Origin: Candidatus Sumerlaeota bacterium
GTDB taxonomy: Bacteria; Sumerlaeota; Sumerlaeia; Sumerlaeales; Sumerlaeaceae
Direction of reading: 5' to 3'
Assembly (NCBI GenBank): GCA_026398535.1
Contig: JAPLSQ010000082.1
Span: 20,003 to 84,002, forward strand
DNA: 64,000 nucleotides
The notes under the pieces are model-generated. The model was not told where the DNA came from. It saw only the letters and a list, made by a program, of their open reading frames with translations, and did not search any database. Positions 48,512 to 55,753 of this stretch are shown here, one piece after another. A program made the translations under genes and the position numbers. Every line of letters begins with the position of its first letter. The stretch's first letter is position 1.

Positions 48512-49642
48512 GTGCATTTCATGCGGATTGCATTGAACGCCATGCAGGTGCGCGCCGCAAAAAGCGGCGTGGGACAGTACATTAACACTCTGCTCGATTC
48601 CATGCTTCGCGCCGATCACTTCAGCCAGTTCACGCTTTATTGTTCACCTGACAACGCGGGAAGCTATGATTTCGGGGCGCGCAATTTCAAAACCATCGAA
48701 TGGGGGTTGCCAGAGGCGGGAAAGACCGCGCGACTGCTTTATGAGTACGCCTTCCTGCCGCGCGAATTGCAGTCGGGGGGCTTTGACATCTTTCATGGAA
48801 TGTCCAACTTCCTGCCCCGTAAACGCGTGTGCCCGTTCATCGTGACAATTCACGATCTGTCGTATTACGTCCATCCCGAGCGCTGTCCCTGGCTGCGCCG
48901 CCAGTACTGGTACGCGATGACGCGCCGAACAATGGCCAACGCCAATCTCATCATCACCGACAGTGAGAACTCGCGCCGCGACATCGAAACGTTTTTCCCG
49001 GGATGCGCGGCAAAAACCCGCGTCGTCCCGCTGGCGGCACACCCGCGGTTCCAGCCCGCCCTGCACGGAAGACACAAATCGGCGGTGACGGCGCGCGGAA
49101 TAACCAAACCATATGTCCTTTTTGTGGGCACGCTCGAACCGGGCAAGAACGTCGTGCGGCTCATCCGCGCTTTCGACGCCATCGCCGACGACTTTCCCGA
49201 TCACATGCTGGTCATCGTCGGCGGCCGCGGATGGATGTGCGAACCGGTATACCGCGCCGCGCGCCATGCGCGGGCCCGCGAACGCATCATGATGACAGGA
49301 CATCTGCACGACAACGAGCTGCCCGATTTCTACAGCTTCTGCGAAGTATTCGCTTTCCCGTCGCTCTACGAAGGATTCGGGATGCCGCCGCTCGAGGCCA
49401 TGGCATGCGGCGCGCCTGTCGTGACGTCAAAAACATCGTCGCTTCCCGGGGTTGTCGGCGACGCCGCCGTGATGATCGATCCCGAATCCGAGCGCGACCT
49501 GGCGGCGGCGCTGCGGCGCGTGCTTCGCGATACCGCCCTCCGCGACGATCTGCGCCATCGGGGCATCAAGCGCGCCGCAATGTTCTCGTGGGACGCAACC
49601 GCCGCGGAAACACTCAAACTCTATAAACAAATCTCCGGTTGA
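48512..49642 (+). CDS. Glycosyltransferase family 4 (GT-B fold)
   Basis: C-terminal …LFVGTLEPGKN…, …PSLYEGFGMPPLEAMACGAPVVTS… EX7E-type motif. Confidence 0.8.
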   Translation: MHFMRIALNAMQVRAAKSGVGQYINTLLDSMLRADHFSQFTLYCSPDNAGSYDFGARNFKTIEWGLPEAGKTARLLYEYAFLPRELQSGGFDIFHGMSNFLPRKRVCPFIVTIHDLSYYVHPERCPWLRRQYWYAMTRRTMANANLIITDSENSRRDIETFFPGCAAKTRVVPLAAHPRFQPALHGRHKSAVTARGITKPYVLFVGTLEPGKNVVRLIRAFDAIADDFPDHMLVIVGGRGWMCEPVYRAARHARARERIMMTGHLHDNELPDFYSFCEVFAFPSLYEGFGMPPLEAMACGAPVVTSKTSSLPGVVGDAAVMIDPESERDLAAALRRVLRDTALRDDLRHRGIKRAAMFSWDATAAETLKLYKQISG

Positions 49643-49783
49643 TGAGACGCGTTGCGGCGGATGCTCCACACCAAATAATAACTCTTGCCTTCCCGTGCTG
49701 TATTGCGGGAATACTTTAACGAATCAAAAGCCCTTACGGCTTTGGAATACACGGTCCGTTGCGGCTGATTTTCAGGGACTGAA

Positions 49784-50041
49784 ATGTTTCAGATTAAGGA
49801 GCATGAGATGAGCCATATCATTCGTGTGATCGGCAGTATGCTGTTGTTGTTGGCGCTGGCGGGTCCGGAATGCCGGGGCGGGCAAATGGATGCGGTCGCC
49901 GCCGCCGCCTCGCAGCGCGACCTGCGCGTGGGCGTCGACATCATCGACACGCTCAGCGGAGGGCCGTTGCGCGATCTCGAAAAGGGCAACTTCCTGCTCG
50001 ACCGCATCGAGGTGCGCGTCTACGACGCCGTGCCCGATTGA
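49784..50041 (+). CDS. Small hypothetical protein with signal-peptide-like N-terminus
   Basis: MSHIIRVIGSMLLLLALAGPECRGG…; ends at the start of the SBP-permease fusion ORF. Weak. Confidence 0.25.
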   Translation: MFQIKEHEMSHIIRVIGSMLLLLALAGPECRGGQMDAVAAAASQRDLRVGVDIIDTLSGGPLRDLEKGNFLLDRIEVRVYDAVPD

Positions 50042-50042
50042 T

Positions 50043-52572
50043 GGATCATGAACCAACCGTATTGTGGCATGGCCATCCTGATCATGAATCATGGGCAGGA
50101 TGGCCTGTCACTAAGAATCCGCCGCGGCGGGATGATGCTTTTTGCTTGAATATCCCTTTGCGGCGCGCATGGATCTGCCCGCGTGTCTGGGTCCTGGCGC
50201 TCATCATGATGAGCAATCTTGCGGCGGGCGTCGCGCGCGCGGCGGAACCCGGCCCTGTGACGCTTCAACTCTGGGGAATGCCCGAGCAGGATCTTTTCAC
50301 GGGCTTCGCTGAACTGCTCAAGGAATATGAGCGCGAGCATCCCGAAATACGCATCGAGCGCGGCACGCCCGGCGGCCAGACGGAACTCGATCCGCAAAAA
50401 CTCATGACCGCCTTTGTGGCGGGTTCGCCCCCGGATCTTGTCCGCATGGACCGGTTTCGTCTTGCGGGATGGGCGTCGCGCGGCGTTTTTCTGCCGCTCG
50501 ATGACCTCTTCGAGCGCGACAAAATCGGCCGCGCCGATTTTTATCCCGCCTGCCTTGACGAATGCGTCAACAACGGAAAAGTCTACGGCCTGCCGTGGAA
50601 CACCGACGCGCGCGCGTTGTGGGCGAACATGGCCGTGCTGAGACAATTCGGTTACAGCGAACCGCCAAAGGATTGGGACGAACTGCGCGCGATGGGCGCG
50701 AAAATGACCGTGCGCAAACCCAACGGCCAGATACAGACTGTCGGCTTTGTCCCGCTCATCGGCAATTCATGGCTCTACATGTATGGATGGCTCAACGGCG
50801 GGCAATTCACGTCGGCTGACCAGCGCCGCATCACGCTCACCGATGCGCGCATCGTGGAGGCGCTCACTTGGATGGCGCAGGTTTACAAGGATATTGGCGG
50901 CATCAAATCCGTCGCCGATTTCATGGCCTCATCGCAGGGAGAAGGCATCGCCGAGCCTTTCATCTCAGGCAAGATCGCGATGAAGATCGACGGCAACTGG
51001 GCGCTCGATTATGTCGCGAAGTATGCGCCCGACATGGACATTCGCGTCACTCCGCCCCCCCCCGCCAAAGGCAACCCCGGCATTTCGTGGTCGGGCGGAT
51101 TCTGCTGGAGCATCCCCGCCAACGCCCGCCACCAGGAGGAGGCGTGGGCGCTGGCGAAATTCCTCGCGTCAAAGGAGGGCTGGCTGCGGGCCGGCGTATT
51201 GCAGGCGCATGCAAACGAGCGCCGCGCGCGCGCCCAGAACCTCAAGTCCGCGTACTTCATCCCACAGCTTTCCTGCTCCAAGACCGTCAACCAGGCGCAG
51301 ATCGGCCAATTCGCGGGCGCGCTGCCGGCGCACATCCGCGAGGCATTCATCGTGAATGTCAACATCCTCGACATATGCAAATTCCGCCCCGTCCTGCCCG
51401 TGGGTGAACAGATGTGGGACGAGCAATGCCGCGCCGTCGATCAGACGCTGACGCTCGACGAATCGCCCGCCAAAGCGCTCGCCGACGCCCAGCGGCGCGT
51501 GCAGGCCGAGCTCGACAAATATTACGCACCCCCCGTCGGAACGCCCTATTCCATCGGCGCGGCATTTTTCACCATCCTGGGCGTCGTTCTGGCCGCCGGT
51601 CTTGCCGCATGGGCGGCCGCGGCGGCGCGCTGGCGCTGGACGCCGCGCGTGCGCTCCGAAGCGGCCGCCGGCCTTGTCTTCGCGCTGCCATGGCTGGCGG
51701 GATTCCTGATTTTCCTGCTGGGGCCCATGCTCGCCTCGCTGCTCATGGCCTTCAGCGAATACAACGCGCTCGCGCCCGCCCGATGGGTGGGGTTGCACAA
51801 CTTCCGAAACATGATCGGTTTCGCGCCAAACGCGGACGGACAAATGGCCGCCACCGATCCGCTGTTTTACAAATCGCTGAAAAACACGTTCATGGTAACG
51901 GCAATCGGCGTGCCGCTGGGCATCGTCGTGAGTCTGGGATTGGCCCTTCTCGTCAACAGGGAGGTGCGCGGCGCGCGCATTTACCGAACGCTCTTCTATC
52001 TGCCGGTCATCGTGCCCACCGTGGCCACGGCCATCCTGTGGATGTGGCTGCTCAACAACGAAACCGGATTGTCAGGCGCCTTTCTTTCGCCCGTCCTGCG
52101 GCTTTTCGGCCGCGACCCGATCGCATGGTTCGCCGACCCCTTCTACTCGCGGATCGCAATCGTGCTCATGGTGACATGGGGCGCCGGAAGCTCCATGGTC
52201 ATCTGGCTGGCGGGATTGAAAAACATATCCGCCACTTATTACGAGGCGGCTGCCATCGACGGCGCGGGAAAAATAGCGCAATTTTTCCTCATCACGCTCC
52301 CGCTGCTGACCCCCTACCTTTTCTTTAATCTCATCATGGGCGTCATCGGATGGCTTCAGATTTTCACGCAGGCCTACGTGCTCACCGTGCCGCCATCCTA
52401 TGGCCCCGACGATTCCCTGCTCTTTTACGTCTTCTATCTTTTTGTGCAGGGATTCCAGTATTTCAAAATGGGCTATGCGTGCGCGATGGCATGGGTGCTC
52501 TTCGTGATCGTGGCGCTCCTGACGCTTCTGCAGTTCAAGCTTGCGCCGCGCTGGGTGCATTACGATCAATAA
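50043..52572 (+). CDS. Fusion protein: ABC-transporter extracellular solute-binding protein (family 1) fused to a MalF-like inner-membrane permease
   Basis: N-terminal ~440 aa is an SBP (…VTLQLWGMPEQ…, …NGKVYGLPWNTD…, …MKIDGNWAL…). A TM linker then runs into a six-TM permease with the EAA loop …YYEAAAIDGAGKIAQFFLITLPLL…, all in one uninterrupted frame. A TTG at ~50147 would give a clean signal peptide (M)NIPLRRAWICPRVWVLALIMMSNLAAGVARA. Confidence 0.75.
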
Positions 52573-52689
52573 AGAACAGGGCTGTTTACTTGACTGCAAC
52601 CAGGCCCAAACAGGCTCTCAGACCGTCGGTTCTTACTGTTCTTCTGGCTGGTCATATGCCAGATGGCCCGAAACCACAGAGAATGAGCG

Positions 52690-53433
52690 TTAGAAACCGC
52701 CGGCTGTTGATGGACCGCCTGGGCCGGGCGTCCCCCCGGGATTGGGCATCATCGGGCCGGCCGGTTGTTGTCCCATGGCCGCATCGGGGCTCATTCCGGG
52801 CATGCCTGCGGCCGTGGCCATGCCAAGATAGGCGCCGGCGGCTGGAGTTGGGATTGTGGCTGCGGCGGCAGCCGCGGCCGCGGCCGCCGCTTTTCCTGAC
52901 GCATTGGGCTGTTTCGGCGCCAGTTCTTTGTTGTACTGGGTCACAAACTGTCCGCCGACAGCCTCGCGCCGCGCATCGCGCTGGGCAAGATCATTCTTTT
53001 CGTCATTGGCCACCTTGAGCCTGTTGGCCACATTCCGGCGAAATTCGTCATCAACCGCCGGTTGCTTCAGAATGTTTTTATAACAGGCAATGGCGGTTTC
53101 GTAATAGTTCTTTGCCTCGGTTGCCGGACGGTTGCGTCCCTGTTTGAGCGCCAGCGCGGCTGCGATCAGGTTGAGCCGGACGGCGCCGGGTTGCATCTGC
53201 GCGGCTTTGGCAAGGTTGTCATAGGCATTGATGTAATCCACGCGGTCGAGGGACTTGACGCCGTTTGCATAAAATTGCATCGCCTCGCGCGGGAACGTGG
53301 CAATTTCAGCCGCGTCGGGCAGCTTGTATTCTTCCGCGCGCGCGGACGACGCGCCGATTGTCATGCAGGCGGCCGCCATCAGCGCCAGCCCGCATTTCAT
53401 CGCTGTGTGTTGTAATTTTTCTGTGATCATCAT
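52690..53433 (-). CDS. Secreted TPR-like protein with Ala-rich and Pro/Gly-rich low-complexity C-terminus
   Basis: Signal peptide MKCGLALMAAACMTIGASSARA, TPR-like helices (…AMQFYANGVKS…NAYDNLAKAAQ…), then A12 and PG-rich tail. Confidence 0.5.
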   Translation of the reverse strand: MMITEKLQHTAMKCGLALMAAACMTIGASSARAEEYKLPDAAEIATFPREAMQFYANGVKSLDRVDYINAYDNLAKAAQMQPGAVRLNLIAAALALKQGRNRPATEAKNYYETAIACYKNILKQPAVDDEFRRNVANRLKVANDEKNDLAQRDARREAVGGQFVTQYNKELAPKQPNASGKAAAAAAAAAAATIPTPAAGAYLGMATAAGMPGMSPDAAMGQQPAGPMMPNPGGTPGPGGPSTAGGF

Positions 53434-53603
53434 TGAGGCTCCATGAGGCGCATGATATCCTGTTAATTATTGCGCCAGCGACAAAAGATTGCTCATTAAT
53501 AGTGCTGATACGAATACGCCATGAAAACCGCTGTCATGCAAAGAAAAAAATGCTTTTGACAAGACATTGGGCATATACGCAACTTAATTACGAGGTTAAA
53601 AAA

Positions 53604-54302
53604 ATGCGATCTCAGACCCGAATCAAGATTGGTTTCACACTCATCGAGCTTCTGATTGTTGTTGCGATTATCGCCATTCTCGCCGCGATCGCGGTTCCCA
53701 ATTTTCTTGAGGCGCAAGTCCGCTCGAAAACCGCGCGGGTCAAGGCCGACCTGCGAACTCTCGCAACCGCCGTCGAGTCGTATCTGACGGATCACAACAC
53801 CTATATCTCCCATATGCTTATCGAGCAGACGATCGGCGCGATCTCCGATCCCTGGAATCCTTATGATCCATCTTTCAGCGCGGCGCCAGGCTCATGGAAT
53901 GAGTTCCATTTTTCCCGCAAGATTTCCATCACCACGCCCGTGGCCTACATTACCAGCGTCCCGCTGGATCCATTTTACACGACGAACGCGCCCGTGAATC
54001 CGGGCAGCACGATCATCGCGGCGAGCAAAAATCCCATCCGCGCGGAATACATGTACAGTTTTTCCAAACAGTCGGCGGCCGACGCGGCCACGGTGGACGC
54101 GTTCATGAAGGCCTACGGCTCATGGCGTCTGTGGAGCGGCGGGCCCGACCGCTTCCGGCGCGAAATCTTCCTGCGCTCGCCCGCCAGCGAGTCCATGCGC
54201 ATCTATGACCCCACCAACGGATCGATCAGCGTGGGCGACATTTGGCGGACTCAGAAAAGCCCCGATGGCAGCAGGCCGGTCGTCCCCGGATATGTCGAGT
54301 GA
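53604..54302 (+). CDS. Prepilin-type N-terminal domain / DUF1559 protein (third paralog)
   Basis: MRSQTRIKIGFTLIELLIVVAIIAILAAIAVPNFLEAQVRSKTARVKADLRTLATAVESY…; C-terminal …YDPTNGSISVGDIWR… The ORF-track start at 53433 is too early. Confidence 0.8.
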   Translation: MRSQTRIKIGFTLIELLIVVAIIAILAAIAVPNFLEAQVRSKTARVKADLRTLATAVESYLTDHNTYISHMLIEQTIGAISDPWNPYDPSFSAAPGSWNEFHFSRKISITTPVAYITSVPLDPFYTTNAPVNPGSTIIAASKNPIRAEYMYSFSKQSAADAATVDAFMKAYGSWRLWSGGPDRFRREIFLRSPASESMRIYDPTNGSISVGDIWRTQKSPDGSRPVVPGYVE

Positions 54303-54367
54303 TTTTAAGGTTGCAGGCGGGATCGGCGATCCCGGCCGCAAAATATGATTACGGAGGAAAATGCGTT

Positions 54368-55753
54368 ATGAAAATGAAGCATGTCGTATTAACTGTGTGT
54401 TTTGCCGTGCCTGGCGTCTTTGCGTGCGCGCAGTCGGTGACAGTGGGCGCGGCGGGAACCTATCCCACCATCAGCGCGGCGCTGACCGCGGTGCAAACCG
54501 ATCCGGCCGGCCCCGACATCATCACCATTCTCGACATCGGCCCATACAACGAGGCCGGGCAGTTGCTGATTACCGGCGACCCCAACGACAATGACCTGAC
54601 GATCCAGGCGTCGGCGGGCGTCAGGCCGCTCGTGATCAGTGACTTCAACGGCGACGGCGTCATCGCCATCATTAAGAACGGCAATACGACGGTGAAGGAC
54701 CTCATCCTGATCCCCGCCGTCGGCGAAATCGGAACCCGCCCACAAGCGGCCGTTCTCATCGATGATGAAGTCTCCGATACAGGATTCAACATTTTCCTGA
54801 ACAACATTCTCATCACATCGAACGATGGCACGAACCAGCCGGTGTGCTCGCTCGACGGGCTGACATCGCCGACGATCGACCCCGGCCTCGCCTACACCTT
54901 CCGCGATGAAGGCGTCTACTCGCTGTCGAACACCAACACACAACTTCACAAGACGCTCCTGAAGGATGTGATCGTGTGCGGCCTGTTTGGCGACCAGGGA
55001 TCGGACTGTTTCCGCACGCTGCTTGACGGCACGCCCGGCTCGGAGTTCGTGGTGGGCGAAGGCTGCGTGGGTTCCTACACTTTGGGCATATCGTCTGTTA
55101 ACGCCGGCTTCCAGCCCGGCGGCAACGAGGGCGGCGCGACCACGGTGCGCGTGCGCGGAACCGAGGCGAAGCCGGTCAAACTGATCAATAATTACATGAA
55201 CGGCATGAATATGACCAATACGACCGTCGCGCCTTCCACAAAAACGCTCGAGTGGGCGATCATTGCCAATAATTCAAAATATGGCCTGGCCACGGGGGAT
55301 TCCAATGAAGACATTGATTTCAAGAATGTGACAATTGCCAACAACGGTCTGGAGTGCATCTACGCGACAAGCACGTTCTCCGGGACCTATACGGCATCGA
55401 ACTGCATCTTTGCGGGTGACGGCAACGATGGCGCCACGGACGTCATCAAGGTCATCACAAGCTCAACCGGGGTGATGTTTGTCAACGACAGCGCCATTGT
55501 GCTCAATGGCCCGCAGAAACTCGACACGGCTAATTTCGACCACGATGGCCTGAACGACAGCACGCCGTCGAACGTCTTCAAAACAAACGTGCTGGATCAG
55601 GATCCGAAGTTCGTATCCATCGCATCCGCGAATGCGGAGTTCTACACCGTGGCTAATCCCGCGTTCGGCACGGCAGGCCCGGGCGGCACACCCCTGCGCG
55701 GCGGCGGAAAGTACAATCCGGCGGCGGGCGTCAGCGACTGGACCATGTATTGA
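54368..55753 (+). CDS. Secreted hypothetical protein, Gly/Asn/Thr-rich, possibly beta-helical
   Basis: Signal peptide MKMKHVVLTVCFAVPGVFACAQS, then repetitive N/G/T/D-rich segments (…TIANNGLECIYA…, …NCIFAGDGNDGATDVIKV…) suggestive of parallel beta-helix repeats. Confidence 0.5.
   Translation: MKMKHVVLTVCFAVPGVFACAQSVTVGAAGTYPTISAALTAVQTDPAGPDIITILDIGPYNEAGQLLITGDPNDNDLTIQASAGVRPLVISDFNGDGVIAIIKNGNTTVKDLILIPAVGEIGTRPQAAVLIDDEVSDTGFNIFLNNILITSNDGTNQPVCSLDGLTSPTIDPGLAYTFRDEGVYSLSNTNTQLHKTLLKDVIVCGLFGDQGSDCFRTLLDGTPGSEFVVGEGCVGSYTLGISSVNAGFQPGGNEGGATTVRVRGTEAKPVKLINNYMNGMNMTNTTVAPSTKTLEWAIIANNSKYGLATGDSNEDIDFKNVTIANNGLECIYATSTFSGTYTASNCIFAGDGNDGATDVIKVITSSTGVMFVNDSAIVLNGPQKLDTANFDHDGLNDSTPSNVFKTNVLDQDPKFVSIASANAEFYTVANPAFGTAGPGGTPLRGGGKYNPAAGVSDWTMY

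Follow-up and report, generated by a model that had tools for sequence, protein, structure and literature searches.

Does the single gene that joins a substrate-binding protein (SBP) to a MalF-like permease in a 64-kb stretch of Candidatus Sumerlaeota DNA (hereafter the window, meaning all 64,000 nucleotides analysed) encode one real protein, and with which partners would that protein work? We find that the fusion is genuine and widely conserved, an assembly artefact being ruled out. We put at roughly 0.8 the probability that its product is the receptor plus first membrane subunit of a CUT1-type ATP-binding cassette (ABC) importer, part of a module split from a retained MalG gene and served by an ATPase encoded elsewhere. 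The window sequence corresponds to contig JBAXHV010000014.1 of assembly GCA_037138735.1, a metagenome-assembled genome. Its plus-strand open reading frame (ORF) 49870..52572 is uninterrupted over 900 codons and closes with a TAA stop at 52570-52572. Translated from ATG 50041, the fused gene specifies 843 aa, in which Pfam places SBP_bac_1 at residues 83-380 (E=5e-37) and BPD_transp_1 at residues 625-837 (E=2e-11; 44.5 bits against a cut-off of 26.4), with SBP_bac_8 matching in the same frame (4e-30) and neither SBP_bac_3 nor OpuAC detected by Pfam in the protein. Binding protein and EAA-loop permease thus share one open frame with no intervening stop, as the first-pass annotation had read it. 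A public entry of 788 aa (P0001) matches the protein at 100% identity and is labelled only 'extracellular solute-binding protein'.

The same architecture is found far beyond this genome. More than 120 full-length fused homologues (735-910 aa, each with an SBP and BPD_transp_1) share 38-70% identity with the window protein. Homologous fusions in related genomes, which the first-pass annotation had proposed to look for, turned up at 80 loci in a scan of species-representative genomes. These represent about eight phyla, the loci coming from Armatimonadota, Planctomycetota, Gemmatimonadota, Latescibacterota, Hydrogenedentota, Verrucomicrobiota, Polyangia and Sumerlaeaceae; the Verrucomicrobiota members include Oceaniferula spumae, which has a complete isolate genome. 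An independent Logan assembly of run ERR15302165 contains the identical fused protein with the same neighbours, and there too the downstream permease is absent. Using the linker and TM0 region alone as query recovered 55 representative clusters at E<=1e-3, a count not usable as family size because this region evolves too fast.

The anatomy of the chain (Table 1) was read from hydropathy, a 46-sequence alignment and an AlphaFold2 (AF2) model built on 46 homologues (pLDDT 88.7, pTM 0.86), which are mutually consistent. Hydrophobic N-termini equivalent to the predicted signal peptide are present in nearly all 46 aligned homologues. Several homologues (P0042, P0051, P0070, P0073, P0100, P0105 and P0110) carry lipobox-like signal peptides (LxGC: LPGC, LGGC, LAGC and similar), which supports viewing the N-terminal segment as a signal sequence that would be cleaved from the window protein; in these members the binding domain could be lipid-anchored N-terminally and tethered by TM0 C-terminally. 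The junction, placed at ~51500-51600 in the first-pass annotation, coincides with the end of the binding domain, the linker of 9 residues and the beginning of an additional transmembrane (TM) helix, TM0. This helix scores H19>1.6 in 44 of the 46 aligned family members, the remaining two reaching 1.45 and 1.53, and a K/R-rich stretch (2-8 K/R per 16 residues) lies 3' of it in all aligned homologues. TM0 is a built-in feature of the family that joins the periplasmic domain to the cytoplasmic (N-in) terminus of the permease, and no accident of read-through. Together, the predicted signal peptide and TM0 are consistent with a periplasmic SBP held by TM0, in support of the tethered-SBP variant of a CUT1-type importer that had been offered as one interpretation of the gene. 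The window protein agrees with the family alignment at each of the 76 invariant columns, and its coupling loop, YYEAAAIDGAGKIAQFFLITLP, conforms to EAA-X(3)-G-X(9)-I-X-LP, with the Y, D and G of the EAA loop and a downstream T.P invariant across the alignment.

Table 1 Coordinates of the fused gene, its parts and its neighbours (window positions)
Feature	Coordinates	Strand	Evidence or remark
Fused binding-protein/permease gene	50158..52572	+	804 codons from TTG 50158, most plausible coding sequence; Pfam, homologue N-termini
Sec signal peptide, predicted	50158..50241	+	RR n-region, hydrophobic core VWVLALIMMSNLAAGV, cleavage-type site between ARA and AEP; hydropathy
Substrate-binding domain, periplasmic, type II SBP fold like maltose-binding protein (MBP)	50242..51525	+	
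Linker of 9 residues (APPVGTPYS), last binding-domain helix to TM0	51526..51552	+	AF2 secondary structure
TM0, extra transmembrane helix (IGAAFFTILGVVLAAGLAAWAAAAA), periplasm to cytoplasm	51553..51627	+	Hydropathy 2.28; AF2 helix 466-490 (804-aa numbering)
Cytoplasmic loop, Arg-rich (RWRWTPRVRSE)	51628..51660	+	Positive-inside rule; read from sequence
UgpA/MalF-type 6-TM permease core (BPD_transp_1)	51661..52569	+	Pfam, NCBIfam, PDB matches, six hydrophobic segments, AF2 helices
EAA loop / coupling helix (YYEAAAIDGAGKIAQFFLITLP), ATPase-subunit docking site	52237..52302	+	Motif read from sequence
Small upstream ORF, 85 aa (annotated 77 aa), signal-peptide-like N-terminus	49784..50041	+	TGA overlaps ATG 50041
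Convergent gene, 247-aa secreted-looking protein	52690..53433	-	Closes the transcription unit where relatives have the MalG-type partner
Canonical CUT1 operon, without ATPase gene	58012..61349	-	Pfam, NCBIfam
SBP of canonical operon	59916..61349	-	
MalF/UgpA-type permease of canonical operon	58861..59721	-	
MalG/UgpE-type permease of canonical operon	58012..58857	-	

The gene can be started at ATG 50041, TTG 50158 or the annotated ATG 50206 (M56, 788 aa). With the annotated start, the signal peptide loses its n-region and half of its h-region, and what is left, MMSNLAAGVARA, lacks a charged n-region. TTG 50158 gives M-RRAWICPRVWVLALIMMSNLAAGVARA followed by AEP, matching homologue N-termini in length and shape better than M56; judged from these N-termini, TTG 50158 or ATG 50041 is probably the better start. 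A promoter and terminator scan of 49500-52800 found nothing above chance.

Both halves of the protein resemble sugar importers. The binding half is a class-1 extracellular sugar-binding receptor (SBP_bac_1, MBP fold), and the permease half is a six-helix core like those of UgpA, MalF, AlgM1 and SugA. Its NCBIfam match to UgpA (8e-26, profile positions 16-294 of 295) falls far under the equivalog cut-off, so the core is not UgpA itself. The NCBIfam MalF match is limited to C-terminal profile positions 286-515, past the P2 loop, and the core TM1-TM2 loop spans only ~53 residues, which leaves the core without a MalF-type P2 domain. Matches of the permease part in the PDB were MalF (2r6g_F, 3.8e-18), AlgM1 (4tqu_M, 4.5e-17) and SugA (1.6e-8). 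The nearest relative of the binding domain is CpMnBP1, a manno-oligosaccharide-binding protein of Caldanaerobius polysaccharolyticus (PDB 4R9F/4R9G); this is an unfused Firmicute SBP whose identity to the window domain is too low for transfer of specificity. The substrate is probably an oligosaccharide, and the manno-oligosaccharide link is a lead only.

Related fused genes normally travel with a second permease. All six individually inspected homologues have a BPD_transp_1 gene (276-609 aa) directly downstream, which in four cases overlaps the fused-gene stop by 8-11 nt, and a MalG-like gene lies downstream in 56 of the 73 informative loci among the 80 species-level loci. The window's sister on the neighbour-joining tree, a Sumerlaeaceae locus (L012), also has its MalG partner. 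In the window itself no distinct MalG/UgpE-type permease adjoins the fused gene, and the first-pass annotation was correct that neither a second permease nor an ATPase is found next to it. A search with the Sumerlaeaceae partner as query recovered P0137, 75% identical, whose gene lies in the same assembly but on contig JBAXHV010000016.1. Its identity to the fused-gene partners in L004, L005, L007 and L012 is 71-77%, and its arrangement recurs with an identical protein on 12 contigs from several runs. As read from the two contigs, the two-gene module of fused gene and MalG is split in this genome with both halves kept intact, and the fused protein would pair with the relocated orthologue P0137.

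An ATPase would complete the importer. MalK-like ATPase genes were almost never adjacent to the fused gene in the 80 related loci, as probed with an approximate E. coli MalK sequence; the missing adjacent ATPase is therefore the rule for this family. CUT1 systems that share an ATPase frequently encode it elsewhere (PMC11212667). The same MalK probe found no ABC ATPase in the 64-kb window; the 395-aa ABC protein of L001 is an unrelated exporter-type ATPase. The intact EAA loop of the fused protein implies an ATPase partner, and both CUT1-type permease sets of the window seem to rely on an ATPase whose gene lies elsewhere.

We hypothesize the following working model. The Sec signal peptide would export the N-terminal MBP-fold domain to the periplasm and then be cleaved, after which the linker and TM0 would return the chain to the cytoplasm, where the N-in, six-helix UgpA/MalF-type core begins. 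The binding domain would thereby be permanently tethered beside the translocation pore, fixing the receptor:translocator ratio at 1:1 with one copy per transporter. There it may capture an oligosaccharide and dock on a heterodimer in which its UgpA-type core is paired with the MalG orthologue, while two copies of an unlinked MalK/MsiK-type ATPase would engage the EAA loops. The complex would thus consist of three components: the fused protein, one MalG/UgpE-type permease and two copies of the ATPase. In most relatives the MalG-type gene lies immediately 3' of the fused gene and is translationally coupled to it; in this genome the module would be assembled from separate loci.

Several points weigh against this model. 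The pairing with P0137 is drawn from orthology, the ATPase search for this genome covered the 64-kb window with an approximate MalK probe and located no gene, and the start codon of the fused gene is uncertain. Moreover, 14 related loci have no MalG-like gene within their available flanks, which leaves room for a partner-independent mode such as a homodimer.

These orphan loci bear on a broader idea that we consider rather unlikely, namely that the family is an independent, phylum-spanning invention of a tethered receptor whose fused subunit can be used with a non-adjacent or alternative MalG, or as a homodimer, and so forms a portable 'receptor plus half-channel'. The idea arises because the fused gene has parted from MalG at about eight places on the tree. 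The orphan loci are indeed scattered at about eight positions of the neighbour-joining tree, which has no support values, and in two of them the neighbours are unrelated housekeeping genes.

A partner nearer at hand, the MalG at 58012-58857, had been suggested by the first-pass annotation; in such a pairing two receptor/MalF modules would share one MalG. This gene lies about 5.4 kb from the fused gene and is the sole MalG-type gene in the window; tblastn with three partner-type permeases found no other MalG-like sequence there. CUT1 systems are known to share ATPases, hence sharing of other subunits is conceivable. MalF-MalG interfaces are normally specific, however, and the identity of this MalG is only 36-38% to the dedicated partners of the family and about 37% to P0137, whereas a 71-77% identical orthologue of those partners is present elsewhere in the genome. 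It also belongs to a complete SBP-MalF-MalG operon of its own on the opposite strand. The suggestion is not borne out, and we consider a shared MalG improbable.

Could the fused protein instead homodimerise in the manner of GlnP or OpuABC, with two tethered binding domains per complex and MalG unnecessary? All well-studied importers with tethered domains (GlnPQ, OpuA) are homodimeric (PMC8025302; PMC11065425), and the 14 loci without MalG would fit such an arrangement. CUT1 translocators, in contrast, are MalF/MalG-type heterodimers (PMC11212667), and the transmembrane domain (TMD) of the fused protein is of the UgpA/MalF type, which is no homodimer-forming family. In 56 of 73 loci the fused gene has a dedicated MalG gene coupled to it, and this genome retains the MalG orthologue, which likewise makes a homodimer very improbable.

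Loss of function after rearrangement would offer another account of the missing partner. The fused gene could be a decaying orphan left behind when MalG was lost, since its partner is absent downstream, unlike in its closest relatives, and its neighbours are unrelated genes not conserved in other loci. Strain comparison points the other way. Between L010 and L011, five differences fall within the 788-codon coding sequence and all five are synonymous (P about 8e-4 under neutrality, with synonymous sites at 24%); the only non-synonymous change between the strains (A/V at 50138) is upstream of TTG 50158. The fused gene is maintained by purifying selection. Its reading frame is intact, and the all-synonymous differences together with the 76 family-invariant residues, as well as the preserved EAA loop, make decay highly unlikely. 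The partner orthologue is also intact elsewhere in the assembly, identical as a protein across 12 contigs, and the separated arrangement with intact genes recurs at about eight tree positions. Finally, the first-pass annotation had asked that an assembly-generated fusion be excluded. Genes for SBP and MalF normally stand in this order, so that one error (a lost stop or a frameshift) could in principle join two adjacent genes in a metagenome-assembled genome such as this. There is next to no chance that the fusion is such an artefact, given more than 120 homologues at 38-70% identity, 80 species-representative genomes including the complete one of Oceaniferula spumae, an identical protein in the independent assembly from run ERR15302165, and a TM0 with a positive-inside loop conserved precisely at the junction. 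That helix is required once a periplasmic domain is fused to the permease, and would be absent from separate SBP and MalF genes.

The genes around the fused gene offer no hint of its function. The small upstream ORF has no Pfam or NCBIfam match and is probably not part of the transporter. On the other side, a spacer of 117 bp separates the fused-gene stop from the convergent gene. The first-pass annotation had described the fused gene as flanked by a tiny ORF and a convergent TPR (tetratricopeptide repeat) gene; both genes are present, while the TPR label is unverified, the convergent gene having no Pfam match and no TPR at E<=0.01. Beyond it, 53433-55753 encodes a protein with a prepilin-type N-terminal methylation motif (N_methyl, 4.7e-7) and a 503-aa secreted-looking protein without a Pfam match. 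None of the small ORF, the GT4 gene, the 247-aa gene or the N-methyl protein has a counterpart beside the fused gene in other loci. Similar N_methyl/SBP_bac_10 proteins lie upstream of the fused gene in a Phycisphaerales locus (L003). A malG remnant 3' of the fused-gene stop was considered and rejected, tblastn being empty between 52573 and 58011. The unfused SBP-MalF-MalG operon that had been noted on the opposite strand is real by Pfam and NCBIfam. Within it, the two strain assemblies lose register at window position ~59780 (L010/L011 position ~19577), in the spacer between SBP and MalF, which indicates an inter-strain indel.

Other members of the family vary in partner size, gene order and completeness. 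The MalG-type partner is 550-610 aa long in Planctomycetota, Gemmatimonadota, Latescibacterota, Verrucomicrobiota and Polyangia (L002 10345-11994; L003 10696-12525; many of L014-L090), with a ~300-residue insertion between the first helix and the permease core that is presumably a large periplasmic domain; in Sumerlaeaceae-like relatives the partner is only about 277 aa. In L092 (6209-8888, on JBAXHV010000016.1), the gene for P0137 itself starts 13 nt past a gene for a 592-aa polytopic membrane protein without a Pfam match, and further upstream lie a 275-aa protein without a match and a DUF5689 protein. An Armatimonadota-like locus (L019 915-8071) has, ~1.7 kb past its fused gene, a second SBP-like and MalF-like stretch followed by a MalG-like gene, which may be a tandem paralogue set. 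In the literature, we found nothing usable that explains scattered transporter genes in Armatimonadota. Three proteins of 455-493 aa are close to the binding domain; P0255 and P0266 stop shortly ahead of TM0, and P0287 stops within it. They may be truncated gene calls, or else relatives that are unfused or anchored at the C-terminus, and would be relevant to the origin of the fusion. One locus (L040, DATKVG010000074.1) comes from a bin labelled Candidatus Bathyarchaeia archaeon, the remaining family members being all bacterial; its place on the tree, among sequences of the Hydrogenedentota type, suggests mis-binning or transfer.

The architecture is of a known type, with a characterised precedent and abundant representation in databases, and the split operon is a mild twist; current understanding of ABC importers is not overturned by the fused gene. 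What the locus adds is a settled answer to the artefact question, the fusion being real and conserved, and a better annotation, in which an uninformative product label, a start that cuts the signal peptide and a MalG partner on a different contig are put right. The family also represents a naturally occurring sugar importer of Gram-negative-type cells in which receptor and translocator are fixed at 1:1. In diderm bacteria, a free periplasmic receptor would stay in the periplasm even untethered. To our knowledge, the MalE-FGK2 system of Bdellovibrio is the sole studied tethered sugar importer of this kind, and the family described here could help probe how tethering affects docking and ATPase stimulation.

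Among known systems, E. coli UgpBAEC and MalEFGK2, Sphingomonas AlgM1M2SS-AlgQ and mycobacterial LpqY-SugABC share with the window protein an SBP_bac_1 receptor, a BPD_transp_1 permease with an EAA loop and a MalG/UgpE-type partner. In these canonical CUT1 systems, however, the receptor is separate (soluble or lipid-anchored), TM0 is lacking and the genes are normally contiguous. Covalent linkage of binding domain and translocator is known from GlnPQ and from OpuA of Lactococcus lactis, both homodimers; GlnP begins with a signal sequence, continues with the binding domain(s) and ends in the TMD, and a short linker holds the receptor near the pore (PMC8025302). The window protein is like these in having its binding domain fused to a translocator subunit. 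GlnPQ and OpuA are mostly Gram-positive systems that combine amino-acid or compatible-solute SBPs with homodimeric TMDs and have two or four binding domains per complex, whereas the window protein combines a class-1 sugar SBP with a MalF/UgpA-type TMD usually paired with a distinct MalG, so that each complex would contain a single binding domain. Its SBP_bac_1 domain is not of the amino-acid/betaine type and, judged from the second permease that is the family norm, its TMD would not be homodimeric.

The Bdellovibrio MalE-MalF fusion was reportedly characterised by Licht et al. in 2019 (Res Microbiol 170:1-12), and its MalE domain is PDB entry 6FFL. As described in PMC6906923, MalE of Bdellovibrio bacteriovorus is fused to MalF in the maltose/maltodextrin transporter MalE-FGK2. 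Both this system and the window's family are CUT1-type sugar importers of diderms with a single MBP-fold domain N-terminal to a MalF-type subunit, a 1:1 ratio of receptor to transporter, and a separate MalG and ATPase. With this precedent (PMC6906923) and a widespread family, the earlier remark that a tethered SBP is unusual for this class was overstated, and the absent adjacent ATPase is the rule, also in the window's other sugar operon. Specific common descent would lead one to expect the binding domains of the two fusions to be closer to each other than to unfused SBPs, and they are not; the window's family seems to have arisen by a separate fusion similar in kind to Bdellovibrio MalE-MalF.

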